Assembly (NCBI GenBank): GCA_051294375.1
Contig: CM119268.1
Location: forward strand, 19,806,785-19,870,784
Length of the DNA stretch: 64,000 nucleotides
Direction of reading: 5' to 3'
Source: Paraspadella gotoi
Lineage: Eukaryota > Animalia > Chaetognatha
The notes under the pieces were generated by a model, which saw only the letters and a program-made list of their open reading frames with translations, did not search any database and was not told where the DNA came from. Below, one piece after another: positions 3,367-46,086 of this stretch (positions within the stretch are counted from its first letter, which is position 1; every line of letters begins with the position of its first letter). The translations under genes were made by a program, and so were the position numbers.

Positions 3367-3570
3367 CTTCAGGCGACATGCCTCAACCTGGCGATGCACT
3401 TTTCCGCCCACAACACATCAGGCGACATGCCTCAACTTGGTGACGACTTTCCACCAACAGCAACAATTCACTGAATAGAACGCAAGACTTCTCCCTACGG
3501 AGGGGGGGATGTATGGTGGACTAAAATCTACCAACCGTTCATCAGCGGCCATTGGTGCTGGAGGCAAGTC
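3367..3570 (+). mobile_element. TRIM family A: internal domain, PPT and truncated 3' LTR, interrupted by a CAGAGATG-ended element
   Basis: CAGGCGACATGCCTCAAC repeats, GGAGGGGGGGATG PPT, then TATGGTGGAC LTR start. Confidence 0.8.
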
Positions 3571-8047: not shown

Positions 8048-8114
8048 TTGAGTAATTATGGGTTAAAATTATTAACAAAGTTTGATTTTATTTTTGCAAC
8101 GAATTTTATTGTTA

Positions 8115-8752
8115 TGAAGAGACAGTAATTATTGTTAAGAGTTAGTGATAGAACCGTTCAATATAAGCAGTCGCTGAGCTTCGGATCAGGCTGTAACACC
8201 ATGTTACAGGCGGGTTAAGCGCCCCGTCCCTCTTAACTGCCAGACGACCACCGGGCTAGAACCCCGGACCTTTGGGTTGGGAGGCGAATGACTTGCCTCC
8301 GGCACCAATGGCCACTGATGAACGGTTGGTGGATTTTAGTCCACCATACATCCCCCCTCCTGTAGGGAGAAGTCTGTTGCGTCTCTTCTGTGAATTGTTG
8401 TTGTTGGTGGAAAGTTCGTCACCAAGTTGAGGCATGTCGCCTGATGTGTTGTGGGCGGAAAGTACATCGCCAGGTTGAGGCATGTCGCCTGAAAGTGTTG
8501 TTGTTGCTGTTGTGTTCGGAAGTCGGGCTCACCAATGAAGAGACGGTAATTATTGTTATGAGTTAGTGATAGAACCGTTCATATAAGCAGTCCCTGAGCT
8601 TCGGATCAGGCTGTAACACCATGTTACAGGCGGGTTAAGCGCCCCGTCCCTCTTAACTGCCAGACGACCACCGGGCTAGAACCCCGGACCTTTGGGTTGG
8701 GAGGCGAATGACTTGCCGCTGATGAACGGTTGGTGGATTTTAGTCCACCATA
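8115..8752 (-). mobile_element. Complete TRIM family A copy (LTRs 8536-8752 and 8115-8348; 4-bp TSD GTTA); 5' LTR has a short deletion removing the A box
   Basis: GTTA at 8111-8114 and 8753-8756; PBS TGGTGAGCCCGAC; PPT GGAGGGGGGATG; twister motifs at 8166-8241 and 8586-8661. Confidence 0.92.
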
Positions 8753-8756
8753 GTTA

Positions 8757-8850
8757 CAAGAGCAGACATGTTTCGCCTCACAGTACGAGCCTTCATCAGC
8801 GCATGATGAAGGCTCGTACTGTGAGCCGAAACATGTCTGCTTTTGTAACA
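8757..8850. ncRNA. Inverted pair of Penelope-type minimal hammerhead ribozymes (duplicate ~11754-11847)
   Basis: Minus: CTGATGAAGGCTCGTACTGTGAGGCGAAACATGTC; plus: ATGATGAAGGCTCGTACTGTGAGCCGAAACATGTC. Confidence 0.75.
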
Positions 8851-8922
8851 ATAAAATTCGTTGCAAAAATAAAATCAAACTTTGTTAATCTCTCAAACAA
8901 CGAAAAAAGAAAGGATAATTAC

Positions 8923-9510: not shown

Positions 9511-11113
9511 ATAATTACCATGGGTTAAAACTAGTAAAAAGATTAAAATTAATGTGACTTATGTTTTTTTCATAGAGTTTAATGCTAAGGGGGACGTCGT
9601 TTTTTATCTCGCCAGATGGCTTAAGCCGTCTTGGTTAGATTTTGGATCGCTTTAGATTCTTTGTGACGTCGTCGTTGTCGTTGTCGGTGTTGTCAGCATC
9701 GGCGTCAAGTTTTTTTCATATATAGTTTTGACTGGGGCTTACAATTTTTTTTAAATAAAAACTACAACGAATTACGATGTATTTTTATAAAAGTGTGTGA
9801 TCACAGTAAGTTAAATATTTAGATATGGATTTTCATCTTTAAGATCTTTACAATTGTTATGTTTCATATGGAATCAAGTATTTTTGTTTGAATTTTTTTT
9901 CATTATGATTTACTGCAAATATGCAAATTATTTTCTATAAATATGCAGGTTAGTATATAGAATACTATATTTTAATTTGCATAGAATTAACTTGCATCAT
10001 TTTTTCAAATTGCATCATTTTTTCACGTAATTAATTAACTAATTAAAGTATTCATAAGTATGCATAAATAATAAAAATTCAAATCAACTTGACTTTGGTT
10101 TTTTCCATACAAACTCCTCGATTCCATGGAAAATTTATATTGCGCTCTAAGGCGATAAGTGGGCTGAAGATGACTATCCGCAACTTCTTTAACCCCTCCA
10201 GCAGCCATGGAACGAGTCCTGGGTTTGAAGGTTTTCCACGAACCGAAGTTGGTTTACGGCCATCCGCACGTTAGGTACTGGGTTGGGATTGAACCCACTT
10301 TAATCAATGAGCCACCGGGTCAGTGGGTCACGACTGAAGGTGTAATGCTTATAGGCAGGGTGAACTTATGCTGTGCCCGACTACAGCTCAATCACACACA
10401 AAATATAATGTCAATCTATCCATCCAATTATGATTAATTCGAGTAAGTATGGTAGCCATAGCCGATGAAATTTAAATGCTAATGTATACAGCGTTAAAAT
10501 AATCTATCATGACCATAGATTATGGTATTAAAATATTTTTTGTCAAAAATGCTTTCTTCTGAGGGTACTCGCCTAATTAAAAATATTATATTACTATATA
10601 GAGCAAAAAATATTTTTTTAAAATCTTAAAATTTTTTGATGGATTCTGATAGAGCATAAAAAGTTAAACAAAAAATATAATTACAGCTTTTAAAAATTCT
10701 TACGTTTTCTAAGTGAAAATAAAGAAAAACTGATAAAATCATCGAAAGATGATGATGATGATGATTTTTTACAGTTTTTCTTATTTTTGACACACTTATC
10801 GTAAAAATATTTAAAAAAGAATCATACTTTGTGTAGACAACTTTTTATGAGCTATCTGAATATGGTCTTAAAATTAAAAAAATCAAAAAAAATGTTTTGA
10901 CCTTTTTTATCAATAAATAAATATTAAAAAATTAATTATTAGGGTATAGAGCCATATTAGAAATTTTTTGTCCATTGAAAGTATTCTTAAAAATGTCTAA
11001 ATATTCGTTTGAGCATGTACTCTCTCTAAATTTTTGACTCACCCCATTGAGTAATTATGGGTTAAAATTATTAACAAAGTTTGATTTTATTTTTGCAACG
11101 AATTTTATTGTTA

Positions 11114-11749
11114 TGAAGAGACAGTAATTATTGTTAAGAGTTAGTGATAGAACCGTTCAATATAAGCAGTCGCTGAGCTTCGGATCAGGCTGTAACACCA
11201 TGTTACAGGCGGGTTAAGCGCCCCGTCCCTCTTAACTGCCAGACGACCACCGGGCTAGAACCCCGGACCTTTGGGTTGGGAGGCGAATGACTTGCCTCCG
11301 GCACCAATGGCCACTGATGAACGGTTGGTGGATTTTAGTCCACCATACATCCCCCCTCCTGTAGGGAGAAGTCTGTTGCGTCTCTTCTGTGAATTGTTGT
11401 TGTTGGTGGAAAGTTCGTCACCAAGTTGAGGCATGTCGCCTGATGTGTTGTGGGCGGAAAGTACATCGCCAGGTTGAGGCATGTCGCCTGAAAGTGTTGT
11501 TGTTGCTGTTGTGTTCGGAAGTCGGGCTCACCAATGAAGAGACGGTAATTATTGTTATGAGTTAGTGATAGAACCGTTCATATAAGCAGTCCCTGAGCTT
11601 CGGATCAGGCTGTAACACCATGTTACAGGCGGGTTAAGCGCCCCGTCCCTCTTAACTGCCAGACGACCACGGCTAGAACCCCGGACCTTTGGGTTGGGAG
11701 GCGAATGACTTGCCGCTGATGAACGTTGGATGGATTTTAGTCCACCATA
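11114..11749 (-). mobile_element. Complete TRIM family A copy (duplicate of 8115-8752 within the tandem duplication)
   Basis: Same GTTA TSD, LTRs, PBS and PPT. Confidence 0.9.
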
Positions 11750-13253
11750 GTTACAAGAGCAGACATGTTTCGCCTCACAGTACGAGCCTTCATCAGCGCA
11801 TGATGAAGGCTCGTACTGTGAGCCGAAACATGTCTGCTTTTGTAACAATAAAATTCGTTGCAAAAATAAAATCAAACTTTGTTAATCTCTCAAACAACGA
11901 AAAAAGAAAGGATAATTACTAAAGCGGGTCAAAATTGAACACTTTTTATAACTTCTAATTCTCTCAAAAATTTTTTTCCCTTCTATTACTAAATCGATTT
12001 TCAATGCAACTTTTTGAATTAGTTCATTGGGTTGTTGCACTGAAGCTTTTAAATATTTATTAATATGTAACAAATGACACAAATTTTTTTTAAAAAAATT
12101 ATTTTTTAAGAACGGATTCCTATAGAGCTTGAAAAGTTAAATGAAAGTTAGTATTCCATTTTTTTTAAATTTTGACAAGAAATTGGTTAAAAACAAAAAA
12201 ACGTTAAAAAATCATCATCATCATCATTATTGGCTAAATTTTGTTTTGTTTTAATTTTTATCAATAAAACAAAAAAAAATTTATATTTTAATTTTTAACC
12301 TTTATCTAACTTTTAAAGCTCTATCAAAAAAAATTGAAAAAATTGAAAAAAAATTTTTAACTTTATATAGTAATAAAATAATCTTTAAAGGCTTCCGTGC
12401 GCTTATTAATAAGATATTTTTTAAAATTATTTTTATTTTCATATTCTCTAACAGTCACTTTACCATTATTTATTTGAGAGAACTTCTGGTTTTCAACCTG
12501 TTCCGGCCTTATAATTACCATGGGTTAAAACTAGTAAAAAGATTAAAATTAATGTGACTTATGTTTTTTTCATAGAGTTTAATGCTAAGGGGGACGTCGT
12601 TTTTTATCTCGCCAGATGGGCTTAAGCCCGTCTTGGTTAGATTTTGGATCGCTTTAGATTCTTTGTGACGTCGTCGTTGTCGTTGTCGGTGTTGTCAGCA
12701 TCGGCGTCAAGTTTTTTTCATATATAGTTTTGACTGGGGCTTACAATTTTTTTTAAATAAAAACTACAACGAATTACGATGTATTTTTATAAAAGTGTGT
12801 GATCACAGTAAGTTAAATATTTAGATATGGATTTTCATCTTTAAGATCTTTACAATTGTTATGTTTCATATGGAATCAAGTATTTTTTGTTTGAATTTTT
12901 TTTCATTATGATTTACTGCAATATGCAAATTATTTTCTATAAATATGCAGGTTAGTATATAGAATACTATATTTTAATTTGCATAGAATAATAATTAATC
13001 ATATTGAAGAGAAAATTTAGACAAAAAATATTATCAATATGAAACACGTGATTTTAAATAACTTTTTTGATAAGAAGCAATATCTAAATTTTAATATAAA
13101 TAAAATTACACACTTTTACAACTTCCAACTAAAATAAATTATAATAATTTCTAATTGTAAACAGTTGTAACTTTTTTGTCTTTCTTTTATTTCTTTAAAT
13201 TATATATATTTTTTTAGAGAAAAGTTTGAATGTAGTGGCATAAAGGGTTTTTT

Positions 13254-13631: not shown

Positions 13632-13844
13632 TATGGACGACACAAGTTTCAGATCAAGAATGATTTATTCTTCAACAAGGTTATAAATAATAACAGTCAA
13701 AATGCTCAGATGCTAAGTCTATTACAATGGTTATTTACAAAGGTCAACGATTTGACCACATATAAACACGGGGAACCGAGCGGGGTCAGGTTGTTAAGGT
13801 CAAGTGGTTTGACCGAGGTTGCGTGTTCGATATGTTCGTCCACA
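13632..13844 (-). repeat. 3' LTR of CsRn1-like Gypsy element (TG...TA termini)
   Basis: Follows PPT GGGGGGATG; terminal inverted repeat TGTGGACGA/TCGTCCATA; TATA-like and AATAAA motifs. Confidence 0.75.
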
Positions 13845-13893
13845 CATCCCCCCACCAAGCCTTTGACCGGGTGGGGAGAAGGCTTGAGAAAAG

Positions 13894-16560
13894 TTATTGA
13901 GTGACGTCGTCGTTTTCGTCGTCATCTTCCGGTGGTTGAAGCATCGTCGGAAGGACGTTAAATAGACCGGGGATGGATGCTGATTGTCGACGAGTAACTT
14001 GGGGCGTCATGGAAGACGCGAGAGGCGCTGCTTCCGTTTCTGGAGGCGGTGCGACTTCATCGTTGACGATGGTTGGAGCCGCTACTGAAGTGCGACGCGG
14101 GCGACCTCGTGGGCGTGCCCGCGGTGGTTCAGGAGGAGCGGCTTCGTCGGTGACAGCAGGTTTCAGTCGATTGACGGAGATAACTTCGACGCCGCGGCCC
14201 GGGATTTCAAGTTTTTTTTTGGGCCGCGTTCGAGGACGTTGTAAGGGCCGTCGTAAGGCGGCTGAAGCGAGGTCGAATATCTGTCGCATCGGACGTAGAC
14301 GTGGTTGGCGTCAGCGAGCGTTTCCGGAACATGAGAAGGCGGCGCCGCATGCCATGCGGCTGGCAGATGCTGCATGAGGGCAACATCTGCTCGGAGATCG
14401 TTGAGGATTCACGAGCGGGCGGCGGCGTCGATGTCGGTTGTCGAGACTGGAAGTAGCTCGCCAGGGAGCGTCAGCGTCTCACCTAGCGTTAATTCAGCGG
14501 GAGAAACGTCCAAGTCTTCTCGTGGAGTTGCGCGGAGGCTCAAAAGAGTCCATGGCAACTGCGCCAGCCAGTTTTGTCCGGCGGCGTCGCAGCGGGCACG
14601 GAGCGCCGCTTTAAGCGTCTGATGAAGGCGCTCGACCATCCCATTGGACTGGGGTGGTAAGCGGTCGTCGTGAAAGGGTCAAAACCGACTACCGCCGCCA
14701 CTTGGCGCCATAGTTCGGACGTGAACTGGGCGCCACTATCGGTGGTGACGACGGAAGGGACGCCGAAGCGCGAAACCCAATTTTGTAGAAAGGCGGCGGT
14801 GACGGAGGCGGCGGAGACGTCTCGAAGCGGTGCCGCTTCCGGCCAGCGCGTGAAACGGTCAATCATCGTCAGAAGATGAGTGTGACCGGAGACGGCTGGC
14901 AGCGGCCCCACTAGGTCGATATGCATGTGTGCAAAACGTCTAGACGGTGGTTCGAAGCTCTGGAGAGGGGCGCGGACGTGGCGCTGCGTCTTGGCGCGCT
15001 GGCAAGTGTCGCATGATGCTGCCCATCGTGCGATGTCGGATGAGGTTGAGGAGCCGCTGGACATCGTCGTCAGTGGCTTGATCAGCCGCCATTGCCTCGA
15101 AGTTGACTTGGAGGGCGCCGACGGTGGCGGCAATGTCCTCGCGCTCTTTCTGCGCGTTCGAGCTCGCTTCAGGTCGATCTGACGGTGGCGGTGCTGGCGG
15201 AGGAGCTGGCAGGCGGGAGAGGGTGTCGGCGACGACGTTCGCCTTCCCGGCGATATGACGGATGTCGCCGTTGTATTCGACAATGCCCGCCAACTGGTAG
15301 GTCTGCCTCATGGTGTGAGGTTCTGCCTTCTTCCGCAGCGCCGGCACAAGCGAGATGTGATCACTGAAAAGCGTGAAGCGGCGTCCTTCGACATATGGGC
15401 GGAAATGGCGGATCGATGCATGAGCATGAAGCTCCTTGTCGAATCGCGGCCATTTGCGCTGGTTTGGCTTCAGTGGTTTGGAGTGGAACCCAAGGGGTTG
15501 CCACTGGCCTTCGACGAGCTGTTCGAGGACGGCGCCGATGGCGACGTCGGAGGCGTCGACGGTAAGGGCGAGAGGAGCGCCGTCGATTGGGTGGACCAGT
15601 ATCTTTGACACTAGTGGGCGTGGCCATCTTGCGTAATGCCTCTACCTTCGACGGAAGAGGGCGGACGCCATCCTTGTCAACGTTGTAGCCCAGAAACTCC
15701 AGGCTGGAGGCGCCGAAAACGCATTTAGCGCGGTTGACGATAAGGCCGTTGTCGGCGAGCGCGTTGAAGACGCGCTTGAGATCTTCTTGATGCTCTTCGT
15801 GTGAGTGAGATGCCACAAGAAGGTCATCTAAGTAAACAAAGACGTGGGGAATGCCGCTTAGGACTTGGTCCATCATGCGTTGGAAGTCCTGGCCGGCGTT
15901 ATTCAACCCAAACGGCATGAAGAGGAACTCATAGAGGCCGAACGGCGTGATGAACACCGTTTTATGGCGATCTTCTTTCGCGACAGGGATCTGATGATAT
16001 CCCTTGCAGAGGTCGATCATTGAAAAAACCGTCTTCCCGACGACGTCAGCGTTGAAGTCCATGAGGTGGCGGATCGGGTAACGATCGTCGACGGTGACGC
16101 CATTGAGGCGTTGGAAGTCGCCACAGGGACGAAGAGAGCCGTCTGGTTTCCGGGTGACGTGTAGCGGCGACGCCCACGCGGACGTTGAGCGTCGGATAAT
16201 ACCGAGTTCCAGCATTTTCTCAAACTCGGCCTTGGCGGTGGCGAGCTGATCGGGGGCAAGGCGGCGGACGCGGGCGAAGACGGGCGGACCTTTCGTTGGT
16301 ATGTGATGCTCGAGAATGGGCGTGGCCACGTCGGCGATGATGACGAGATAGGGAAAAACGCGTTTTCCCAATCTAATCCCCATCTCTCGGATGCCGAATG
16401 TTTCAATGGGCGTGTCGTTGGCGGCACGGAGTGGCGGGGCGTTAGCGGCGGCAAGCGCCGCTTTGACGGCGGCTGGGTCTGCCTTGGCGGCGGCGCGGTC
16501 GGCGGCAGAGGCGGGGATGAGCGTCGCTTCTGAGCCGCTGTCGACACACTAAGAAAAGCT
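13894..16560 (-). pseudogene. pol: pol (PR-RT-RNaseH-IN) pseudogene
   Basis: Motifs split over ORFs 15361-16383, 14940-15611, 14540-15283, 14409-14639, 14163-14375, 13894-14289. Confidence 0.9.
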
Positions 16561-17354
16561 TCAAGTCGTTTCGGCCAGCGACGCGGGCGACTAGCGTTTG
16601 ACGGCGCCATTAAGCATGGGCGGCCGTCACGGTTCGTCCCGTGGCACTTGAACGCGTTGGTGCCAAAATTATAATAGTAGAAGCACTTGGCTTCGCCCAT
16701 GGGCGGTTCGCGGTGTGGTGGGGAGCGGGGCGTCAGTACTGGGCGCCGTTGCTGCTGCGTCTGCTGCTGCGTTGAGCGCTGTTGTGATGGGCGCTGCTGC
16801 GTGAAGGGGCGCTGTGTTGAGCGCAGAGGGGCTCGGCGCACTGCATTTGCGTAAGAGATGGCGCCATTGTCGTCGTCGCTTGTCAATTCGTCTGGAAGCT
16901 CCAGTGGCTCGTCCACTGTGACCTCACTGGTGGTGATGGCGTTCACCAAAGATGGAGTGCGGTCGGAGCTGCGAAGCTGGCCTGAAGGAAGGAAGAATTC
17001 GTCGGCGTCTTTGGCGATGTCGGCGGGCTTCTTATCCTTCGTGACAGCGTGTTCCCTGACGCTTTGAGGGAGGGAGGCGGCCAAGATGGCGGCCTTAATG
17101 TGGTCCATGGTGAGACCTTCCAAGACGGCGTCGATCGCGGAGAGGTGCTGGGAAGGGGTGACGCCCTTTAGGGACGTCATCTTCAGCGCCTTTGCAGCAC
17201 GTCTGTTGGCGTCTTTGCCATAGATTTTCTGAAGGTGTAGGACCAAGTTCTTGTGAGCTTCCGGCCCTTCGTCAATGCGGAGACCATGTGGAATTAGTCG
17301 GTGGCGGGAGATGGGGATGGCGCTGAGAATGAGCGCCTTCTTCTCCTTCTTCAA
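16560..17354 (-). pseudogene. gag: gag, N-terminally truncated
   Basis: ORF 16017-17354 with TPSQHL/ADEF helical region and a CHCC-like knuckle. Confidence 0.75.
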
Positions 17355-17539
17355 ACGCAGAACAAAGTCGCATTTACTAAAATCTTTTTACTTATTTTAA
17401 CCAATAAATCATAATTGGATGGATAGATTGAGTTTATGGTGGACTAAAATCCACCAACCGTTCATCAACGGCCATTGGTGCCGGAGGCAGTCATTCGCCT
17501 CCAACCCAAAGGTCCGGGGTTCTAGCCTGGTGGCCGCCT

Positions 17540-17615
17540 AGCAGTTAAGAGGGACGGGGCGCTTAACCCGCCTGTAACATGGTGTTACAGCCTGATCCGA
17601 AGCTCAGGGACTGCT
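17540..17615 (+). ncRNA. Twister ribozyme-like motif, 5' LTR (predicted cut 17564/17565)
   Basis: AGCAGU-UAAGAGG-GACGG-GGCGCU-U^AA-CCC-GCC-P3-G-CCUGA-UCCGAAGC-UCAGG-G-ACUGCU. Confidence 0.78.
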
Positions 17616-17955
17616 TATATTGAACGGTTCTGTCATAAACACTTATCAATAATTACTGTCTCTTCATTGGTGAGCCCGACTTCCGAACAAAACAGCAACA
17701 ACACTTTCAGGCGACATGCCTCAATCTGGCGATGCACTTTCCGCCAACACATCAGGCGACATGCCTCAACTTGGTGATGCACTTTCCACCAACAACAACA
17801 ATTCACTGAAGAGACGCAACAGACTTCTCCCTATGGAGGGGGGGGATGTATGGTGGACTAAAATCCACCAACCATTCATCAGCGACCATTGGTGCCGGAG
17901 GCAAGTCATTCGCCTCCCAACCCAAAAGTCCGGGGTTCTAGCCTGGTGGCTGCCT

Positions 17956-18031
17956 AGCAGTTAAGAGGGACGGGGCGCTTAACCCGCCTGTAACATGGTG
18001 TTACAGCCTGATCCGAAGCTCAGGGACTGCT
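17956..18031 (+). ncRNA. Twister ribozyme-like motif, 3' LTR (predicted cut 17980/17981)
   Basis: Identical core to 17540-17615. Confidence 0.78.
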
Positions 18032-18723
18032 TATATTGAACGGTTCTGTCATTAACACTTATCAATAATTACTGTCTCTTCAAGTTCAAATTTTGTGTGT
18101 GGGTAGGAAAATGTGTGACGAAACTTGATATAAAGTTTCGGTACAAGTGGAAATGAGTTTAAATGAAAAAAAATATGAATCACATTTACTTGACTCTTTT
18201 TACTTATTTTAACCCATAATAGATTGAGATGAAATTTTGTGAGCGGGAGGAAAAGTGTGTGAAGAAGCTAGTATATAAAGTTTTGACGGAATTGTGCCAG
18301 TGGAAATGAGTTTAAATGGAAAAAATATAAGTCACATTTACTTGAATCTTATTATTTATATGATTACTAATAAATGTTTTAATTAATTGATTAATTAATG
18401 TGAAAAAATTAGTTAAAAAATCTTAAAAGCATAAGCATCGTCGCAATTGCAGAGAGAGAGAGAGAGGAGATAGATATATGTTGCGATATCAAAATGATAA
18501 CATGCAGAAATGAGATGCCTAATTTTACGAGTTCAATCCTAATTCAATTTTTTTTAAATAAAAATAGGGAAGTCTGGCGTTAAGCGTCCGAGATAAAAAT
18601 TAGCGAATAAAAAAGTTGTTATTTTACTCACTGAATAAAAATACTTAAAATACTTAGAAAATATATAAAATTGATAAAATTATTATTCCGATAACATTTT
18701 TCAATCACATGCAATACATCTAG

Positions 18724-19703: not shown

Positions 19704-19914
19704 GCGTTCATCAGCGGCCATTGGTGCCGAAGGCAAGTCATTCGCTTCCCAACCCAAAGGTCCGAGGTTCTAGCCCGGTGGTCGCCTAGCAGTTAAGAGG
19801 GACGGGGCGCTTAATCCGCCTGTAACATGGTGTTACAGCCTGATCCGAAGTTCAGGGACTGCTTATATTGAACGGTTCTCTCATTAATACATATCAATAA
19901 TTACTGTCTCTTCA
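19704..19914 (+). mobile_element. 5'-truncated solo LTR of TRIM family A with mutated twister (19788-19863)
   Basis: tRNA-like part, twister with loop UCCGAAGU, ends in CTCTTCA. Confidence 0.85.
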
Positions 19915-19972
19915 TGTGACTGCTTTCTTTCGTTGCGTTTTAGAATTAGTTTTAGGGAAGATAATTTTGTAT

Positions 19973-20232
19973 TGTGGCGGTATATTCACACCGCCTCACA
20001 TCCACCATCATTCTGCCACTACCGTTGGCTCAGATGGGGAACAACCCATCCCAGCCGTACTGTTCCATCCACTCCACCGTCCTAACGACTTCCCTCTGGG
20101 TTGGCAAAGCGAGACCGTCCGATGGTAACCGCGCCAGTGACTGGATGCGTCACTGAGGGTCGGAAGCCCCCAAAGCCAACAGTGGGATGACCCATCCTAT
20201 TGGGCATCACAGTCAACCCGGCTGTTGCCATA
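19973..20232 (+). mobile_element. Putative solo LTR of a second family (B) with Pol III boxes and twister; termini TGTGGC...GCCATA
   Basis: Flanks GTAT/ATAT (4-bp TSD with 1 mismatch); A box TGGCTCAGATGG; B-like GTTCCATCC; 5' hairpin GGCGGT/ACCGCC. Confidence 0.65.
20100..20180 (+). ncRNA. Twister ribozyme-like motif (P5-type), predicted cut 20126/20127
   Basis: P5 GUUGGC/GCCAAC; AAA; P2 GCGA/CCGC; GACCG; UAA; GCC; P3 AGUGAC/GUCACU; P4 GGG/CCC; loop UCGGAAGC. Confidence 0.8.
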
Positions 20233-20929
20233 ATATTTGGTTTTGTTTTGTCATCAGTACGTCGAAACATGTCTGTTATTTTTTTTCTTAATAAAATCGT
20301 TGTTTGTAAATAAAATGAAAAATTTTCGTCTCTCAAACTATTATTAATATTATTATTATTATTATTATTATATTATTATATCGTCAGCGGATATGGGATC
20401 CGCCTCCACTCTATTTAGGAATTGTTTCATGGGCCGAGGGAGTAGGACGAAGGACTTTAGTTATCAGAAGCGAAGCTGCCCTCGGCCCGAATGGTTGCAA
20501 TATTATTTCTAGCAATTTTCGTTTTATCTCTTTGCGCTTTAAAACTGTAAATAAGTAAATACAACTTATGCTCGTATTTCAAATTCTCTTTGTAATAAAT
20601 TTACACACCGAAAATAGCGTAAACGGCCAAGTGGTGTCACCGACGAGATTCGAAAAGAAAAATTAAACAAAATCAACCACGCGAATCAAACCGAAGAGAC
20701 TCAATTGAAAAAAAAAAATACGCTACAATAGTGTATCAAGATGGATTCGGATTTTTAAAAACAGAAAACAATAAACAGCTTAGTCCTAATAAACGCGGTT
20801 TCTTTCTCCCGGATTAACTCGCGAAAGAAAAACAAAAAAAAAAAAAAAATAAAATAGAAATAAAAGTAAACCATTCGGGCCCTCTCACCTAAAGATTGAG
20901 CCAAAACGATATCACGCTCCATCCTGGAC

Positions 20930-22458
20930 ATGGCAAAACTACTTGGCATAGGTGAGAAGGGGGCTAGCAAAGAATCGATACCGCCGCTGCAACCCACTGC
21001 ACCGGCCGGAGAGAAACCGTCAGACGCCATGCAGGGCATGGTGGGACCTACTTGGATAGACGAACCGGAATGGTCGTCTATTATGACAGCAGAACCGAGC
21101 CCATCAACCGATGACGAACGAACTGCCGGGCTTGACAAAATCAAGCTCGTCGACGACGACGAAGGCGCCGACGCCAATGAGACAACATACAGCAATGGCA
21201 AGCCACACCTTCTTAATCTAGACGAGAACCTAAGAAGGGTCGCGGAGGGAAAGAAAGGCAACATGGGAGCAGCCATCACCGAGATATTAGCCTTGGTCAA
21301 CGACAACAAGGTGGAGTTCCGCCGCGCCGCGGCGGAAATCACGCCAAGCGGCCGCCGAAACAAGGGCTCTCGCCAGAAAGATGGCCGACCTCGCACATGC
21401 GGTAGAAGAGCTGGCAACGGCACCAAGGGAAGAAGGCCCAGACGCCTACGCGCCAGAAGACCGCCGAAGAAGCACGTCCACCGCGGAAACGCCAGGCAGC
21501 CAGCCCCGCGCTCAATCTCAGCAAACCCGCTCTCACGTGCGCCGATCAAAATGGACAGGCGACGTGAAGGAGAAAAAGCCGATGGAGTTCTTGAGGGGCA
21601 TCTACAGAAACCTCAAGAACTGCGATTTCGAAGAAAAACGGGTGAACGAACAACTCCAAGCCGTCCTCGCACGCGATGAGGAGGCAAATTGGTACGTCGA
21701 CCCCATCGACGGCAGCCTATGGAAAGGCCTCGAGGCAATGTGCAAAGAGTCATCTGTCACAGCGGCGGAAATAGCCGAGAAGATAGTGGTGAAGGTGGAC
21801 CCGAAGGAACACTCCGAGTACGGACTCCCACTAGTGAACTCGATCTACAAAAAGTTCGACTGCGTCGCACCCGAAGAACGTGACGCAGTCTCGCGCCACG
21901 TCGCCCGCCTGTTGACGAAGGCGCTGGACCCGTACGCCCCTGGCATCTCAAGAGAGGTACTGAAATTCAGGAACCTCATCGACACAGGAAAACGCCGCGA
22001 GCTAGGAAAGGAAATCGAGTGGATCCTGCGTGGATGGCTCGAAACGTACGGATACAAATCGGAAGGCACCGCTCGCCGCTTCATAAACTCAGTGAAGGAG
22101 AACGACTGCCAGATCCTCACAGACTCGCTCCTGAAGAAGGGTCTGAGCGACAAAAACCCCGCCGAGAGCGAACGCCCTGTATCAAGGAGCAATGATGCAG
22201 GAAGCAAACAACACGCGCGAGCTCATGGAGAAGCTCACGAAAAGCATGTCGGCGATCCAAAGGGCCGTCGAAACAAAGAAGGACGACGGCAGATGGAGAG
22301 GGCGCCAGCCAGGGACACACAGACGCCCAGAATGGCGTGACAGGCGCGACGGAGGGGGCGACAGGCGCTGGCAGGGCAGACAGGCCCGCACAGACAAAAA
22401 TTTCCGAAGGATAGATTTGAATTTAGGCGCAGAGACGCGATTGAAACCGATGAATTAG
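20930..22458 (+). pseudogene. gag: gag-like ORF, frameshifted
   Basis: Overlapping ORFs 20930-21679, 21381-22340, 22192-22458 between PBS and protease. Confidence 0.6.
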
Positions 22459-23269
22459 ATGTCCAAACCACTAATAAAAATTTCGAAAATTACAACTGCT
22501 CATTATTACCGATCCCAAGTCAGAAAAAGGAAAACCCCAGAGAGGGTGAAAGCGGCGAAGCTAGCAAACGACGCCGCTGACAAATCAAGAATGCCGCAAA
22601 GAAATGGCAACCATCTGACGCCTTAGCGAGATTCGCCGACTGCGCAAAAACAGCGATGAAATTCAAAGGCAAGGACGCAGCAACTAGACTGTATAAACTG
22701 TTCGCCCCGCTTGGGGCCAAAGACAGACACTTGTTAGCTGTAGCGATAGTCAAAGAATCAGAGCCCCGTGGAAAACGTTCTCCGTGAAAGACAAATTCGC
22801 ACACGTCAAACGCTTGAAAGCGTGCGAAAAGCTCTGCAAAAAGGCGGCAAACCGGGAAAACGGTAGGCGAATAGAAGCAACGCCCCCGCCCCGACAACCT
22901 CGCAAGCTGAAGCGGAAAAGCAAAAACAAGGCAAAGCCAAAGCCAGACTTAGAACGTTTGTCGAATTCGGCGGAGTAAAGTCGAGAAAGATGGTTTACAA
23001 TCCGACATACACAATCATCGGAACTAACCAAGGCGAGTCCTTGCACCAAGAAACGATCAGAAAGATCGAACGGATGTGCCATGAGCCAGAGACACTGACA
23101 ATGCCCGTCACAAAAGAGGAATCCAGGAAAGACGAACAAATGCCCCCGCGGTTACCCGATTCACCGCAGAGGCGCCCCGTCCAACAGAGAAAACAAAAGG
23201 TCCGAAACCGAGAGACGATACAGGAAAAGGTTTTAGGCACGCAGGAAATAACTATATCCCTGCAGTAAT

Positions 23270-26200
23270 AAATGGGGCACCAGCCAGCTGCCTACACGAC
23301 ACAGGGGCCTCCATAAACACAATACAAGGAGGTTTGTAGACGAATGGTCGCTAACAAACAAGATTTATAGTGGAAACCCACTAAGAGTAACGACAGGAAA
23401 CGGGCCGATCACTATAAGAGAAAGACTGAACCTGAGAGTGATGTTTCAAAACTGGATTCTAGACACAGTATTCTTCGTCTCACCGGACGCCGAGGACAGA
23501 GACGTGATACTAGGCACGGCGACGACCGACCCAGGGCCCAGCGAAGAGATGTGGGTGATAACGCCAAATGATAAAGACGGAACGCAGGTAGCCCACATGA
23601 ATGGAAAACCGGTAACCCACCTGTTCAAAAGCAAGCAGAACGCCCTAAGAGCCGCCAGATGGCTGGCCAGGCAATACATAGACGACAGAACAGAGATTCC
23701 ATTGTTCGCAGAAGCAAATGGCACCGGAACACCAAGGTCAGAGCGGCACGCACATATTGGAAATCACTAGCCGATTCAAATGGCTGATGGAATCAGCAGA
23801 CGGAAAGACAGCAGTTACGGTAACGGGAAACGACCTGAAAGAAGGAGTTGAACTCCCAGGAAAACCGGGCACATGGGATCAGCCAGAATAATCATCACGG
23901 AAAACGCAGCCAGAGAGCTAGGGCTGAAGCCGCACTGCGCAGAGCAGACCGTGGACGCCGACTTCACAGGTGGAGAACCCAGACTACGAAAAGCCTGTAA
24001 AACAGACATCCCACCAACAACGATAGTAAGACACACCCATCGAAGGAAGAGATCGAACAAGCAGACAAAGCCAGGAGCAGAAGGAGACAAAAGCATGATG
24101 ACAGAGGCCGAGAAGCTTTCCTGAAGCCATTCAAGGAAATAGACCCATCCCTCAGCGAAAAAGCAGACGAAGTACTTGACGTGGTCTGGGAATACAGAGA
24201 CGTATTTGGCGAATCGATTAACGATTGCAAGGAAGGCTTCCTGAACTATAAAGTTGACCTGGGATTCACAACAAACAACTTACCCAAGCCAAGATTCATG
24301 AATCAAGGCCCTGTCAAGAAAGCGCGCCCTAAAGAGGTACCTAGAAGTGTACGAACAGCAGGTGTCGTCTCAAGAACGACGGGTGAGGCATATTCAAACG
24401 CCTTCCTAATAAAGAAGCCGAACCACATCAAAGAAGGCCAAAACGAAATGGATGACGAAACGTTCGCTAAACAATGGCGACTCATTGCGATCTCTCAGCG
24501 GTAAACAGAAATATATCAACTTTCGCCACAGAGCCGCAGACAATACATCCATCTTGGAACAATACAAACCACATGAGCTCCAGTGCTCAGTGGACATCCT
24601 AGCCTGTTTCCATCAGGTAAAATCTGACTGACAGAAGCAAACCCGTGACCACCTTTGCCGGCGCAGGGCACAATTGGAAGATGAACAAACTCCCGATGGG
24701 AGGCGTAAACAGCATAAATGTACTGCAAGCGATAACTCGACGAATCTTCGCGGATCTAGGAAGAGACGTCAAAAGTTTCCTCATATACGTGGACGACCTG
24801 ATCCTCACAGCAAAGTCGCCGGAAGAAATGGCAGACAGGTTAAGAGAATTCCTTGAAATCTGCAGGAAAAGAATGTGGTCCTCAAGTGGACAAAAGCGTC
24901 CTCTTAAGGAAAGATGACATCAAAATCCTAGGCTTCAGCATCTCGAAGGACAAACTGAAACCCCAAAGGAAAAGCTTGAGCAGGCGGAGCTAAGACTGAA
25001 AGAGATCAAGACGCAAAAGGAACTACGCGCGCTGTTAGCGTTGCTAAATTATTACAGGTGCTTCACGCATCGATTCTCATACCTGGCGCAGCCCCTCCAC
25101 GCGCTAACCCTGGTCGACAAGAAAGACTTCGAATTCAGAGACAAGCACGAAAAGCCTTAGAAACGTTAGTAGAGGAAATCAAATCGACACCGGGGCTAAA
25201 TTTCCTAAACGACGCAAAAATCAAAATGGTGAGTACAAAATTTACGCTGACGCAAGCACAAGCGCCATGGGGGGCCTAATTACAGCAACGGCTAACGGAA
25301 CCGAATACCCCCTCAGTTTCCACTCAAAATCATTCCAGAAGAGTACAGAATAAAACATCAACATCCTAGAAACACTCGCTTTCAACATGATGGTGAGAAA
25401 GTTCAAAGGTTACATTTGTGGAAGAAAGGTCAGTCTAGTGACAGACTCACAATACTTCAAAAGAGTAATGGACCAGCAACACGACAAACAGCAGCTGCTC
25501 CCAACGAACGTACTACGCTGGATAACAGAAATCCGCCAAGAATGCCACCCCTCAGAGATCATCTTAGTAAAAAGTGGCGACAACCCAGCGGACTTTTTAA
25601 CCAGATTCACTGATCAAAATCAAATCACCCCACTAGACACGCCTTTCCTAGCCGCAGGCTTCGACATCGACGGCAGTTACGAACCAGGCTTCACCGAAGA
25701 ACCGTTGTCAGGCGAGTCGTGGCAGGACACCTGGAACTCAGGGTAGGCGGAGCGCCGATACTAGGAATAATAGCCACCGCACTAAACATCGACGAAAAAT
25801 GCTTTCGAACAAAATTCTTCGAATTCATGAAAAGCTATTTCTCTCGCCAGAGGGCGAACATAAAAAAGCTGTACGGCGCACCAAAAACAAAAAGACGTTT
25901 GTACGTTTATCAGAACAATCTCTGCAAAGGACTGGTCACTGGGCCACCCAGAGCTAGAAGCACTAGCAAACATGACAGGTATATGCATCAAAATACTAGA
26001 CGAGGACAGCACCGCACAAGCCGGCTGTAAGTACGAAAAGGTGTACGGCGGAGGAAAGGAAAGAGAAATAAAGATCTTCAGAAACAACCACCGGCCAAGC
26101 TTCGCTGATAAGCGATACCGAACGAAGAATGAGAGCCATCAGACACCTAGTGATGGCCCCCGCCAGAACAATGAAATATTAAACATCGGCCTAGAACACA

Positions 26201-28135
26201 GAATAGAAGAGGAAAGAGCCTATCGCAGGCGGGTACCCAGAGCCAGATTGGCGCCAGCACCATAAATGAGACCATCTGCAATGCTCCCCGCCGACACCGT
26301 CATGATCGGCCAAAATCTCACGCGAGACCAGCAAACCAGAACCGAAGAAGAGTACCGGGACCACCGCTGGAGGCACCAACCGAGATAGATAGGACGAGGC
26401 GGCTCCACCAAACTCAGAGGTGACAAACGCAGGCCCCAACGGAATCAACCAGAGTTTTCGAGAAGAGAACACAACAGGAAAAGCTGAACGAAGAGAGGCG
26501 GGACCCCCGTCCCAAGACAATCAACCACCGGTGAGAACAGCAGGCCCACCAAACTCCCCCGACAGAACCGAACAAGTACAGCCAACGTTCCGGAGATAGA
26601 ACCGGAAACGAACAGGAAAACGAAGAAAACGAGGACCCGATAGAACCAACAATCCAAGAGGCTACGACCGCCCCTCAAGTCACGGAAATAATAACCGATT
26701 CAACAATCGAAGCTTCAGTCGAGGTAGACGAAATTGACCTCGAAAGGACTTATCAAATAACGTCAGACGTGACTCCTCAATAATGCCAATGAGAACTGAG
26801 ATAAAAAGCTGGCAGAACGATTGCAACGAAATCAAGGACGCCAAGGAGATATACAAAACCATGGCGCGGGTGGCCTCAGAACGCATTTGGAAGCAGGTGA
26901 GAGAAAATCACTCACACCCACGCAAGCATTCCTCCTCCGGAACGTAGACGATCTGGAGATAACCAAAGATGGAATCCTCTGCGTTATCGGCTTCACAGCA
27001 ACGAGCCGGTCAACAAGATATATCATCCCACAACAAAATCTTAAGGAGGTAGTAAAGAGGATACACGAAAAACTAGGCCATCCAGGAAGAGATCGATCAG
27101 CTTACCTAGCCGCGCAGTACATAGCGGCCCGAATATGGTAAACAGCTGCGGGGAAATGGTGCTCGAGTGCGACCGTTGCAGGCGCGCCACCGACGAAATG
27201 CAATTTAATGAAACCGAGTCAAGACCAACAGCAGCTCGAATCCCATGGGAATCGCTAAGCATCGACGTTATGCACTTACCCCCAGTGGGGGCTACAACCA
27301 CGTCCTAGTGGCCTCAGACAACGCATCAGCCTACACATGGGCGATCCCACTAAGACGAGCCGATGCACAACACGTAATCAAAGCCCTCGATGCGAATATA
27401 TTCCTGCTACATGGTAACTACCTAGAGGTAAATTTTGACGGAGCCACGTCGCTAAACGGCGAAGAGATGAGAAGTATATTGAACGTGCTAGACATGAGCG
27501 GAAGAAGGATCCTAGTCTCCAGAAAGAACAGTAATCGAGCCGAAAGAGACATAGGCAGAATTAGGCAAGCACTAAGAAAGACCCTAAATGATGACCCGAA
27601 CAAGTGGATCAACGCGCTGCCATACTTAATGCTCACTCTGAATGCGACGCCCATAACAGGATGGAAAACAAATATGTCACCACACGAACTCCAATTCGGT
27701 AATAGGCCAAGACTGATAGAGGCGCCCGATGAAGAATCATACGAATGCCTAGCAGATTATGCACAGAGGCGAGCGGATAACCAACAAGAAGCACAGAAAC
27801 AAATCGTAGAGCAGAGATTCATCAGGCATAGACTCACAAAAAGAGGTAACCGCTTCAGAAACCCAAAGAAGATCAAAACAGGAGACGAAGTCTACGCAAG
27901 ACGTGACTTATTGAAAACAGGCGCCGCACCTACACAAAATAAGGTGAAAACAATTTACACAGGCCCACACAAAGTGATCGAGGCTAGGGGAAACCATTAT
28001 GTAATAAATATCAACGGAAAGCGCTCACTCTACCACAGACGCCGCCTCAAACTAAAAGGCGGTGACTCAGACGATTCAGAACCTAAGGAGAAGTATAAGC
28101 GAAGAGACGCTAAACATACAAATTTAAATACTTAA
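23270..28135 (+). pseudogene. pol: pol (PR-RT-RNaseH-[OTU-like]-IN), frameshifted
   Basis: LHDTGAS protease; PMGGVNS/YVDD RT; DASTSAMGG RNase H; HEKLGH...C..C zinc finger; integrase core; YTGPHKV GPY/F motif. Confidence 0.88.
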
Positions 28136-28541
28136 CAAAAACGACTACACATTCCACAAGTGATTAAAGAGAAAAGGCAAACAACTCATAAATTCAATAG
28201 CGCAAAGTCAACTTCAAGGTAAGGGTTAAACGAAACTAAAACCAACAAAGGAAAGTAAAAGAGAAAGAATAAAGAATAAGGAGTAAAGATAAAGTAGATA
28301 TAGGCCAGAACAGACAGAGAAAGACCCAGTTCCTCCTCAACCCGACTCACCGGGAAAACGCCGGCCGATCGCTTCGCGATCGCCCGAGGAGGAAGGGGGC
28401 AGACCAGACGCTCGAAACGATGATAGGAAAGACGACGAGCTACGAGCGCCTGAAAGAAGCAGAAGGGAAATAGGAGGCTCACAATCGTTCGAAAGTTGCT
28501 CAGAAAAAAAAGCCAAACAAGAAGAGACCACGCAACCCAAA

Positions 28542-29609
28542 ATGCAGACGAAACGATTGTGATTGTCCTCACCGTAGGCGCAGCGGTCGACGCAACCATG
28601 CTCGTCGGAGAGAACGGGCACGGCATTCTAAAACAAAAGATTGGAGTATTCGACTGCAATACGACATCCGAGCACAAGGATGTCGAGCTGCGGACTCACG
28701 GTAGACGAGACTTCCTCGCCCCACTTCTTCTACGTAGAGGACGGATTCAGGGAATCAAACGGGACACATCGGTAATGGAAGCCATCATGAAACAGCGTCG
28801 AAGTTAGCGCAGAGCAACCAGGAGAATATCGACTCACTCACGAAAGCAGTGCGACATGAGCTTTGCGTAACGAGGGCGCGCGAAGCAAGGACGGCGGCTA
28901 TCGAGGCCCACCGCTCGCCGGCGGCTACCACGTTCATCGACCGCGGCGAGATTGCCGTCCTACGCGGGGAACTGTTGGTGACCGCCAAATGCGACAAACC
29001 CTCGCCCTCCGAGGGAGACCGAAAAGTGCTACCAAGACATGCCCATCTCTTTCGGAGACGGGAAGCATACCGCCACGCCATCTATCATCACGTGATAGAC
29101 TCCTCGTTCGAAACGCCTTGCTCCCCTCCTCCTGTCTACCAATTAGGCGACAGATTTGTCGACAACGACGGGCGTCCGTTCGACAAATACCAGACGCTGC
29201 GAAACGACGCTTCCGGACGCCAAACATCATGTCACGAGCGAGATTTCCATCTACGAGGAAGTAAGGCGGTTTATGGATCGTCACGCAAAGTTCACGGGGC
29301 AAACCCAGCGCTTCAATGAACGGCTGGGGAAATCACCGCCGGATCACCGTCATCCTTCATCCGGCGGATCTTCGGCGACTCGTCCTAGTGGAAATATGGA
29401 ACTGGCTTGTAAACTTGGCGCCACTCATGGGACTCATAGCCGTCGGAGGAGTGGTCGCTGTCTGCGTCTGTTGCGGCTGCTGTCAGTGCGCGACTGGCTG
29501 CATCCGCCGCCAAGCGGAGCGGTCGGACAGAACGTCGACGCCGCCATCGGCCGCGCTGCAGGACGACGACGAGACTCAGTGCCAGTCTAAGACCTGTCCC
29601 CTCGTCTGA
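28542..29609 (+). pseudogene. env: env-like glycoprotein (class III, herpes gB/chuvirus-like), internally deleted and frameshifted
   Basis: Signal-like TIVIVLTVGAAVDA; GVFDC; ELC...SP...GELLVTAKC; CYQDMPI; PC.PPPVYQ; C-terminal TM and Cys-rich tail. Confidence 0.65.
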
Positions 29610-29986
29610 GCGGCGGGGGGGCGCGTCAGCGGATATGGGATCCGCCTCCACTCTATTTCGATCTACGTGAACTCTCTCTCTCTCCCTCTCACTCTCTCCC
29701 CTCCCACTCTCTCCCTCTCTCTGTTTTTCGATCGTGGTTTTAGCTCATAGCGAATCAGAGGGCGGAGAGTGGGACTAGGTCATAGGGAATTGTTTCATGG
29801 GCCGAGGGAGTAGACGAAGGACTTTAGTTATCAGAAGCGAAGCTGCCCTCGCCCGAATGGTTGCAATATTATTTCTAGCAATTTCGTTTTATTCTCTTTG
29901 CGCTTTAAAACTGTAAATAAGTAAATACAACTTATGCTCGTATTTCAAATTCTCTTTGTAANNNNNNNNNNNNNNNNNNNNNNNNN

Positions 29987-43430: not shown

Positions 43431-43862
43431 ATTCAACGTAAATAAAACAAACAAACGCGTGTATGAGTGAGAGAGACAGAGAGAGACAGAGACAGAGAGT
43501 GTACAAACATTGTTTCCAAGCATAAAACGTATTCTGACTAAATCTCAAAGCCGTAAAATAAATCCACGAAAATCTCGGATGTAAATTTTGGATTTTGTAT
43601 TGAGAAAAAAGCGCGGAATAAATGGCGATAATAAAAGTTTTAGAACGAAACAAGTTTGAGCAAACAATGTCGAATCTGCCCACGATAATTAAGTGGTATT
43701 CAGCTAAACAAATAAATAATTAAATAAATATTATAAAAGAAACAATTAACAATAAAGTACAAAAAAATTTTTGTGATGTGATAACCCTTTCGTTTTCGTT
43801 GTTATTAGAATTTAGAGAAAAACAAAGTTTTTAATTGTGGTACAACGAATTTAATTGGAGAT

Positions 43863-43903
43863 ACGGACATGTTTCGGCTCACATTTCGAGCCTTCATCAG
43901 CAT
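43863..43903 (-). ncRNA. Minimal type I hammerhead ribozyme (PLE)
   Basis: CTGATGAAGGCTCGAAATGTGAGCCGAAACATGTC. Confidence 0.8.
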
Positions 43904-43941
43904 TTGCCATAAGGAAAATATTTGTGCAAAAAGAAGGGTGT

Positions 43942-43972
<31 letters not shown>

Positions 43973-45252
43973 GTAAGGTTTTCCAACAAAGTGGTGAGAC
44001 AGAATAGTGGTCAGATGAGAGAACAGGCTGAAGTTGAGGACAGATTGAGTGAGTTGTGAAAAGAAATGAAATTTGTTAGAGAGAGAGAGAGGGAGAGAGA
44101 GAGAGGGACAACAGGGATAAATAAATAAGTATTAAAGATACATTTTGTAATGTACAACAAAAGTAAAAATTTGAAAAACTAAATGTCAGTAAGAGTTTAA
44201 CAATTATCTAATTTAAATAGTTAGCTAAAGGATAGTAACATGAATTATGAAATTTGAAATGTGAAAAGGATAGTTGATAGTTAGGAGGATAGGAAAGTGA
44301 AATATAAGGAGAAAGAAAGAGCTCAAAATGAGCTGGCCCCCCTTGTTTTATATGCAAATGAAGGACAGAGACGATGGTGCCAGGTCATTAGCGCGTCATA
44401 GGCTGAGAGGAGGAGTGTGGTTGAACCAGTGAATGTTGCACTGGGTATCGAACCTGACGGAAAGATTCCCAGAGCCACTCTTATGTCTCTTTGGCCTGTT
44501 GTGCCTGCTGGCTGCCCTCTTCTCGCCTGCTGGCGAGGCGGGCGGTTGTCCGTTCTTGCCGCTTTAGTGACAGGAGTGGTGGACTCCTCTCCCCCTCCTG
44601 AAGCCGTCGTTTTGGGCGGCGCCCAGTCGCCAGAGAGAGGGACTGAGTTGCTTCATTTGAGTGAGAGCATCGTTTGCCCATTGCCCTGTGCAAGGGTCTC
44701 GCGCCAGTCTCGTTGAGTGGAGACAGGGGAATCATTGTGCGGGCGTGGTGGAGGCGGGGCCTTCACCACGCTTTTGATAAGCGTATCATAACTTGGGAGG
44801 GAGATCGAAACGTCCTCCATCACGGTTCAAAGAGGGCTCGAGGCTTTGATGTAAATTGCCTCTCTAATACCTCTTGAGAACCAGTTTGGGTCATGGGACA
44901 GCACGAGACAGTCTGATTCCCTGAACAGATGGCCTGTGCCTGCGAATGTTCAGCAACTGCGGACAGAAAGTGACATTTAGTTTTTCAAATTTTTACTTTT
45001 GTTGTACATTACAAAATGTATCTTTAATACTTATTTATTTATCCCTGTTGTCCCTCTCTCTCTCTCCCTCTCTCTCACTCTAACAAATTTCATTTCTTTT
45101 CACAACTCACTCAATCTGTCCTCAACTTCAGCCTGTTCTCTCATCTGACCACTATTCTGTCTCACCACTTTGTTGGAAAACCTTTACCTCTATCTCTCTC
45201 TCTCTCTCTCTCTCACACCCTTCTTTTTGCACAAATATTTTCCTTATGGCAA

Positions 45253-45293
45253 ACGCTGATGAAGGCTCGAAATGTGAGCCGAAACATGTCCGT
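45253..45293 (+). ncRNA. Minimal type I hammerhead ribozyme (PLE)
   Basis: ACG-CTGATGA-AGGCTC-GAAATGT-GAGCC-GAAA-CATGTC-CGT; palindromic ACAUGU stem III. Confidence 0.85.
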
Positions 45294-45369
45294 ATCTCCA
45301 ATTAAATTCGTTGTACCACAATTAAAAACTTGTTTTTCTCTAAAAAAATTTTTAAATATTATTATTTTT

Positions 45370-46000
45370 TCCACTTGCATCATTTTTTTTACTAGCATCA
45401 TTTTTTATACCTCACATAATTTTATTAACTGCCATAATTTTTTTAACTCGCATAATTTTTTCAACTTGCATACTTTTTTCAACTCTCATAATTTTTTAAA
45501 TTTTCATAATTTTTTCAACTTGCATAATTTTTTCAACTTGCATACTTTGTTTAAATATCATCATTCTTTCAACTTGCATCATTCTTTCAACTTGCATCAT
45601 TTTTTCAACTTGCATACTTTGTTTAACTATCATCATTCTTTCAACTTGCATCATTCTTTCAACTTGTATACTTTTTTCAACTCGCATAAAAATTGTATCA
45701 TTTTTTAAAATTTGTATCATTATTTAAAATCTGCATCATTTTTTTAACTTGCATCATTTTTTTTAAATTACATCATTTTTTAGACTTGCATCATTTTTTT
45801 AACTTGTATAATTTTTTCAACCTGTATCATTTTTTTCAACTTGCATCATTTTTTAAACTTTCATCATTTTTTAAATTTGCATCATTTTTTTATTTTGCAT
45901 CATTCTTTCAACTTGCAACATTCTTTCAACTTGCATCATTTTTTCAATATGCATCATTTTTTTAACGTAAATTATTTTTTTAAATTGCATCATTTTTTCA
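45370..46000 (-). repeat. 18-bp minisatellite (TTTTTTCAACTTGCATCA); opposite orientation at ~47790-48090; noisy copies ~52640-53290 and ~55130-55640
   Basis: Visible tandem units. Confidence 0.9.
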
Positions 46001-46086
46001 CTTAATTAATTAATAAAATAATTAATTAATTAAAACATTCATGAGTTAGCATAAATAATAAAAAGTAAAGTCAACTTGACTTTGGT

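Follow-up and report, generated by a model that had tools for sequence, protein, structure and literature searches.

The plant LTR retrozymes (Cervera, Urbina, de la Pena 2016, PMC4918200) are described in the available sections of that paper as elements that are cut in both of their long terminal repeats (LTRs), give rise to circular RNAs and leave solo LTRs behind, and that share with their gypsy helper only the primer site, the purine tract and the LTR ends. According to reviews and a 2026 preprint, in the parts available, type III hammerheads are the ribozymes of LTR retrozymes, which are found mainly in plants, and the retrozymes of animals are devoid of LTRs, primer site and purine tract. 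LTR retrozymes have so far been described as plant elements with hammerheads only. The Helenus TRIMs (TRIMp3) are LTR elements that code for no protein; they have tRNA-like boxes and gypsy helpers and, in animals, 4-bp duplications (Kojima 2024, PMC10886601). The available parts of this paper name ribozymes in a reference only. Another self-cleaving RNA, the twister, is common in genomes and its function there is mostly unexplained. Twister variants occur at the Schistosoma non-LTR element Perere-3, where the target duplication abuts the cut site (PMC8501958, available sections), and accessible abstracts and excerpts also report twisters in viroid-like circles. Our literature search, based in part on excerpts and with subscription journals, Repbase and preprint supplements outside its scope, retrieved no paper that describes a twister inside an LTR.

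Here we describe a locus of the chaetognath Paraspadella gotoi (assembly GCA_051294375.1, contig CM119268.1, positions 19,806,785 to 19,870,784 of the forward strand), a stretch of 64,000 nucleotides that we call the window and number from its first base. It contains two repeat families, A and B, with a twister fold in each. Family B is likely the remnant end of a small protein-free element that would be copied by way of circular RNA.

A multi-copy repeat with LTR-type ends

The family B unit (19973..20232, forward strand) is 260 bases long, starts with TGTGG, ends with CCATA and is non-coding, the longest ATG frame having 49 amino acids. It is present once in the 64-kb window, and the evidence for other copies comes from contigs of four of nine listed sequencing runs mapped onto the locus. 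The summed depth in run X1 (not to be taken as a copy number) climbs at the 5' end of the unit from about 4 thousand to 1.8 million and drops to about 300 past its 3' end. Contigs with loose ends accumulate at both boundaries, 61+40, 69+48, 58+39 and 16 of them in four runs at 19972-19973, and 32, 31+30 and 29 in three runs at 20232-20233. The sequences flanking these loose ends are unrelated to each other (agreement 0.42-0.46), and most copies in the contigs of the four runs differ from the window copy. Family B exists in many copies that end sharply at 19973 and 20232-3 amid diverse flanks. BLAST within the window gave no link between families B and A; the multi-copy contigs and the collinear order of parts bear out the preliminary description, which had proposed a second, sequence-divergent family with the layout of family A.

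That description had also called the unit an LTR. Its ends are indeed LTR-like, but paired LTRs, a primer site, a purine tract and a perfect target duplication were not seen for family B. The candidate 4-bp target duplications, GTAT on the left (19969..19972) and ATAT on the right (20233..20236, both forward strand), are identical at three of four positions, and the flanks in the window hold no primer site 3' of the copy and no purine tract beside it, so the copy is read as a solo unit. No joint implying paired family B LTRs was found among the joints listed (15 of 78 in the first mapping and 11 rows in run X9), and no primer-site-like loose end beside the unit among those listed (24 of 740 and 6 of 86). 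Because its ends are those of a neighbouring gypsy LTR and fit the CsRn1 clade, and because family A has a tRNA-Trp primer site, the window copy is probably a solo LTR; that family B as such is an LTR we hold to be very likely.

The neighbour in question is a broken Ty3/gypsy element on the reverse strand (13632-17387). Its 3' LTR of 213 bp (13632..13844), in which no ribozyme was found, reads TGTGG...CCATA and so agrees with family B in the five bases of either end; the chance of sharing these ends beyond the leading TG is about 1 in 75,000, in a comparison made post hoc. The junction at its purine tract, GGGGGGATG, is shared with family A. The broken gag-pol (14540..17387, reverse strand), with reverse transcriptase (RT), RNase H and integrase in separate frames, would represent the candidate helper clade. 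A search with the RT did not place the clade of the element, its 5' LTR was not found in the window, and its Gag has only an imperfect C-x2-Y-x9-C against the clade motif CX2HX9CX3C. By its LTR ends and this imperfect motif the element appears CsRn1-like. In CsRn1-like elements the ends read TGT...ATA, the duplications are of 4 bp, and the primer site, TGGTGAG/CCCCG, is that for tRNA-Trp (PMC2582038, available sections); the termini of family B agree with the TGT...ATA or TGT...AAA ends of this clade, and the CsRn1-type tRNA-Trp primer site is present in family A. The broken gypsy element adjoins the family A element that starts at 17435.

The same ends on a coding gypsy LTR could also mean that family B belongs, as an LTR, to a long and possibly coding gypsy element that itself bears the twister. 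Two contigs of run X9 would suit such an element, one of 3,737 bases (depth 45) that runs from inside family B past its 3' end and one of 4,769 bases (depth 87) that runs from inside family B past the twister, the reference depth being 4-7 in four of the eight pieces listed. These contigs may, however, be host sequence with an inserted family B unit, a coding RNA would be expected to lose its cap and poly(A) through a cut in the LTR, and no ribozyme was found in the LTRs of the two coding elements of the window. We regard this origin as improbable and keep to family B as the LTR of a small element.

Several other repeats lie in the window. A long LTR element on the forward strand (20380-29960) starts about 150 bases after family B; its LTRs (20418-20595 and 29786-29961) are 97.8% alike, the 5' one lacking a stretch of the 3' one, a G-rich tract precedes the 3' LTR, and a primer-site-like TGGTGTCACCG is found near 20630. 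Two weak matches, with integrase and with a Monjiviricetes fusion glycoprotein, had E values of 0.003 and 0.006, below the cut-off. An element with long terminal inverted repeats (379 bases, 97.9%) at 43782-45348, with relatives at 51021-52641 and 57021-58221, is probably a DNA transposon or foldback family, and arrays of an 18-base AT-rich minisatellite lie in opposite orientations at 45277-46036 and 47737-48098. The sequence 3' of family B at about 20260-20310 resembles a 103-base near-perfect palindrome seen at 8750-8852 and 11747-11849, into the edge of which family A is inserted, and is multi-copy in the contigs.

A two-LTR sister family

Family A is beyond doubt a two-LTR element. Its intact template of 648 bp (17435..18082, forward strand) has LTRs at 17435-17666 and 17849-18082 that are identical in 226 of 235 columns and carry a twister each, and it is flanked by the target duplication AGTT/AGTT. 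A primer-binding site of tRNA-Trp type, TGGTGAGCCCGAC, as in CsRn1-like elements, is located at 17668..17680 and a polypurine tract at 17835..17846 (both forward strand). From cut to cut the element measures 416 bases, and this length folded as a circle does only slightly better than shuffles (z -1.8, 4/100). Family A copies were found at 506-783, 3368-3570, 8114-8752 (target duplication TAAC/TAAC), 11113-11749, 17435-18082, 19705-19914 and 62317-62983; the one at 19705..19914 is a 5'-truncated LTR on the forward strand, a separate insertion that ends 58 bases before family B.

An insertion seems to have split one element into the pieces at 506 and 3368. The copies at 8 kb and 11 kb sit in a 3-kb tandem duplication (99.3%), and the 62 kb copy has numerous small indels. 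The internal part of family A has a short direct repeat, and the LTRs starting at 17435 and 17849 begin with TATGG, the reverse complement of the CCATA terminus of family B and of the gypsy LTR, and end with TTCA.

The twister fold of family B

A P5-permuted twister fold with P3 was located at 20100..20180 by descriptor, Rfam and structural mapping, and all motifs listed in the preliminary description were found where it had placed them, on the forward strand. The order begins with P5 (20100-20105/20175-20180, 6/6 paired), AAA, the 3' strand of P2 (20129-20132/20109-20112, three of four paired with one C-A at the first pair), GA (20113-20114), the 3' strand of the pseudoknot T1 (20161-20163/20115-20117, 3/3 paired) and a loop-closed P1 of 2 bp. 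It continues with the UAA cut loop (20126-20128), the 5' strand of P2, GCC (20133-20135), P3 (20136-20141/20149-20154), a single G, P4 (20157-20159/20168-20170, 3/3 paired) around the loop U-CGG-AAGC (20160-20167), and closes with the second strands of P4 and P5. The second pseudoknot, T2, is likewise paired 3/3, and the permutation opens in P5. The stems P1, P2, P4 and P5 that define twisters are thus present, as are the UAA cut loop, GA and the U-NNN-AAGC loop. From the published consensus the cut is predicted between U20126 and A20127, 154 bases inside the unit. Upstream, a 6-bp hairpin GGCGGT/ACCGCC (19976-19981/19990-19995, forward strand) takes the position of the family A hairpin, and the 3' part (20181..20232, forward strand) folds into two hairpins and the terminus.

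A strict twister descriptor gave nine matches in the window, eight in family A and one in family B, and none in 20,000 dinucleotide shuffles of family B on both strands. The best Rfam match on 286 bases was twister-P1 with 20.2 bits (E 0.06), against a gathering score of 67.2 bits for a model that describes another permutation than that of family B, and no P5 model was among the rows listed; Rfam returned no match on the whole window and no twister match on one family A LTR. Both twister families are therefore missed by the standard Rfam models. The P1-permuted reading of the Rfam alignment was rejected, the downstream segment being unable to form T1. Pattern scans of other sequence collections recovered 3 and 31 viral loci and 0 and 107 metagenome loci, none of the 34 viral loci passing the strict descriptor and none of the 107 metagenome loci having the twister downstream loop.

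In folding without pseudoknots, the window copy prefers a competing hairpin that takes in GA, T1 and P1 (probability 0.35-0.85), and the 2-bp P1 does not form (probability 0); the hairpin spans two positions where the window copy departs from most copies. The last bases of the LTR are predicted to pair with the region of the cleavage site (-14.3 kcal/mol duplex), and the pairing probability of P5 is 0.81 with the RNA end at 20190 and 0.10 with the end at 20232.

The low Rfam score, the weak P1 and these competing folds would be expected if the twister-like fold were a non-cutting relic or a coincidence. Against this, the core and pseudoknot positions are all intact and are conserved across copies, and some 94% of the natural twister candidates that have been assayed are active, with flaws in P1, P2 and P4 tolerated (PMC5113685, PMC11662667, available sections). 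We therefore consider a relic highly improbable, and hold with high confidence that the twister fold of family B is real and conserved.

Conservation and covariation

Conservation was judged from the copies in the contigs. Sixteen sites have one other letter at about two thirds or more of depth in four runs, as counted among 40 of the 62 difference rows listed and leaving out the split-letter sites 20010 and 20021. None of the 16 is among the 62 positions of stems or core (p about 0.011 on a uniform distribution), a test biased by the selection of the window copy for its intact core in the preliminary description; 20121, 20123 and 20146, the three that do lie within the twister, are all loop positions. 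The least conserved part of family B is the region of the A and B boxes.

The C-A mismatch in P2 had been taken as a sign that this copy may be inactive. Both of its positions, 20112 and 20129, are absent from the listed differences between copies. In runs X1 and X3 all counted A-to-G places are among the rows listed and none is at this pair, and the full difference list of X9 at 20% has no entry at either position, the absence of a row being not fully reliable there as the near-fixed sites 20078 and 20099 of the first mapping are missing from it. The C-A thus looks like a state of the whole family; P2 of family A is likewise imperfect, and imperfections of P2 are tolerated in assayed natural twisters (PMC5113685, PMC11662667, available sections), which speaks against the suggested inactivity. 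The competing hairpin would give a better reason for doubting the predicted cleavage of the window copy.

The second argument concerns covariation between the families. Pairs were compared by structure since MAFFT misaligns the A and B twisters, and the comparison covers 17 pairs drawn from P1, T1, T2, P3 and P4, as P2 and P5 are not alignable position by position. Ten pairs are the same, seven have changed on both sides and none on one side only. The statement that every helix changes yet keeps pairing therefore stands for the two-sided changes but goes too far, T2 being identical in A and B, T1 differing by one inverted pair, and P5 and P2 not being alignable. The inversion in T1 is tolerated in mutational scans (PMC5113685, PMC11662667, available sections). 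Nor is the covariation the strongest support for the ribozyme, as had been claimed; it weighs less than the conservation of the core across family B copies, for the two families were chosen because they pair.

The 5' 170 bases of A and B, from a C-rich tract to the twister loop, show a weak collinear local alignment whose score is reached by 9 of 1,000 shuffles, and their 3' parts are unalike (924 of 1,000 shuffles score equally well). From the collinear 5' similarity, common ancestry of A and B appears likely but not certain.

Promoter-like boxes

A tRNA-type A box, TGGCTCAGATGG (20026..20037, forward strand), fits TRGCY and YGG, the form of box A in Helenus, and its surroundings are the most variable part of the unit. 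The B-like box of the preliminary description, GTTCCATCC (20062..20070, forward strand), is present but weak, carrying TGTTC and failing both GTTCRANNC and the GGTTC of Helenus box B. Family A shows the reverse: its B box fits GGTTC and its A box fails TRGCY and YGG. The distance from the start of the A box to the B box is 36 bases in family B versus 45 in family A, nine fewer. An ATTGG that overlaps the family A box could also be read as an inverted CCAAT box. ARAGORN found no tRNA in family B, and a combined A and B box test, matched by 0 of 20,000 shuffles, has little weight as the B pattern was relaxed after inspection of the sequence. Transcription of family B by RNA polymerase III is plausible from these motifs.

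An A box with a B-like box, and the sight of single units only, would also be in keeping with a tRNA-derived SINE or another non-LTR repeat that its twister frees from host transcripts, comparable to Perere-3 of Schistosoma, twisters being known at non-LTR elements (PMC8501958, available sections). Such a repeat would hardly have two sharp ends with LTR-type termini and lack a poly(A) or simple-repeat tail, as family B does; moreover, the duplication of Perere-3 abuts the cut (PMC8501958), whereas the predicted cut of family B lies 154 bases inside. We consider a SINE origin quite improbable, and read the unit, as above, as an LTR.

A proposed replication cycle

The reading we favour, with moderate confidence, is that family B is the LTR of a non-autonomous element that is self-cut in each LTR, circularised and mobilised by a CsRn1-type gypsy helper. 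RNA polymerase III would start from the tRNA-type internal boxes of the LTR, and co-transcriptional cutting at U20126/A20127 in both LTRs would release a unit-length RNA without terminal repeat. The re-pairing of the two twister halves at its ends would help a host ligase to join them, and the circle would restore the whole LTR. Once the RNA is joined, the 3' end of the LTR could mask the cut site by pairing and so prevent a second cut; the drop of P5 pairing between RNAs ending at 20190 and at 20232 may correspond to a window for cutting and then a block. Reverse transcription primed by tRNA-Trp would proceed round the circle, and the helper integrase would integrate the cDNA by reading the LTR ends common to helper and element. 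The window copy may have been left by LTR-LTR recombination or by a short cDNA. We judge this full circular-RNA cycle to be on balance probable for family B.

A simpler scheme would be a miniature LTR element with an active twister and linear RNA, in which the cut sets the RNA ends in place of a T-run terminator. There is no run of four T on the forward strand of family B or of the 648-bp family A element, and most Helenus LTRs, by eye in the available sequences, have a T run after the tRNA part. The absence of T runs is, however, non-significant (247 and 1,786 of 2,000 shuffles), and cutting both identical LTRs would lose the repeat needed for strand transfer, a problem that a circle solves (PMC4918200, available sections). 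Since cuts in both LTRs would remove this terminal repeat, the circle model is favoured, and the linear one seems unlikely.

Comparison with known systems

The closest layout was found in the sequence file of PMC10886601. By eye, and within the parts of the file available, Helenus-2_SyJa and Helenus-2_SyUm of Synergus wasps have a TGTGG start, a 5' hairpin, a C-rich tract, an A box, a B box, then a ribozyme and, behind it, the 3' part; they also have a Trp primer site and a purine tract rich in G. The ribozyme in Helenus-2_SyJa-LTR and Helenus-2_SyUm-LTR is an apparently complete type III hammerhead, after the B box, with CUGAUGA and GAAAC cores, three stems and complementary loops, and it is unmentioned in the available sections of PMC10886601. 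In a word search of the file, where line breaks can hide matches, the hammerhead word occurs at five places, two of them these LTRs, and the twister loop words at three, all in internal parts; no further ribozyme was seen by eye in supplement parts 1 and 5-9 of 11. The A/B layout of these elements agrees with the earlier proposal of a class of elements rather than one family. One design with an exchangeable ribozyme would then underlie family A, family B and the Helenus-2 elements of Synergus with their hammerhead. We give about even credence to a broader class of animal LTR retrozymes, tRNA-promoter miniatures that use CsRn1 helpers and RNA circles and have a slot for a twister or a type III hammerhead.

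If this is true, twisters gain a role in LTR retrotransposition, and the requirement, judged from two twister families and a hammerhead family, would be the self-cut and not one particular ribozyme. The circular-RNA route of retrotransposition would extend to animals, with a testable helper clade named, and TRIMp3 and the retrozymes would become joined. Published repeat libraries contain unrecognised ribozymes. The present locus adds a second covarying twister family and a link of its ends to a CsRn1-like gypsy element.

Twisters of the P5 type (Rfam clan CL00120) have the same UAA, GA, pseudoknots, U-NNN-AAGC loop and P2-P5 (PMC5113685, PMC11662667, available sections); family B differs from those published in its 2-bp P1, the C-A at the first pair of P2, the inverted T1 pair and a sub-threshold Rfam score. 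Perere-3 and the animal non-LTR retrozymes also link a ribozyme to animal retrotransposition (PMC8501958), but in the sources as available they have no primer site or purine tract, and their cut sets the 5' end or splits tandem units. The CsRn1-clade Ty3/gypsy elements share the TGT...ATA ends with family B, and the primer site and the 4-bp duplications with family A; unlike these families they encode Gag-Pol, and ribozymes or tRNA boxes are unmentioned in the available sections of PMC2582038.

Helenus TRIMs resemble the present families in the tRNA-like boxes of their LTRs, in the 4-bp duplications, which are perfect in family A, and in a gypsy helper, a candidate one here (PMC10886601). The pair of LTRs, the primer site and the purine tract of these TRIMs are found in family A and were not seen for family B, and in the other animal Helenus of the sections available the tRNA part lies near the 3' end of the LTR, with no ribozyme by eye. 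Plant LTR retrozymes are non-coding too; each of their LTRs holds a ribozyme that cuts itself, they have target duplications of 4 bp and solo LTRs, they share boxes with their gypsy helper, and the ribozyme is blocked in the finished RNA (PMC4918200, available sections). Family B corresponds to them in being a non-coding unit whose termini are common with those of a gypsy element. They carry a type III hammerhead, are primed by tRNA-Met and have circles shown experimentally; no hammerhead core was found in the window, and here the host is an animal, the ribozyme a twister, the primer tRNA-Trp (in family A), the boxes are of tRNA type and the circles are predicted. By this comparison, family B would work like a plant LTR retrozyme, from which it differs in the type of ribozyme, and would depart from Helenus in its B box.
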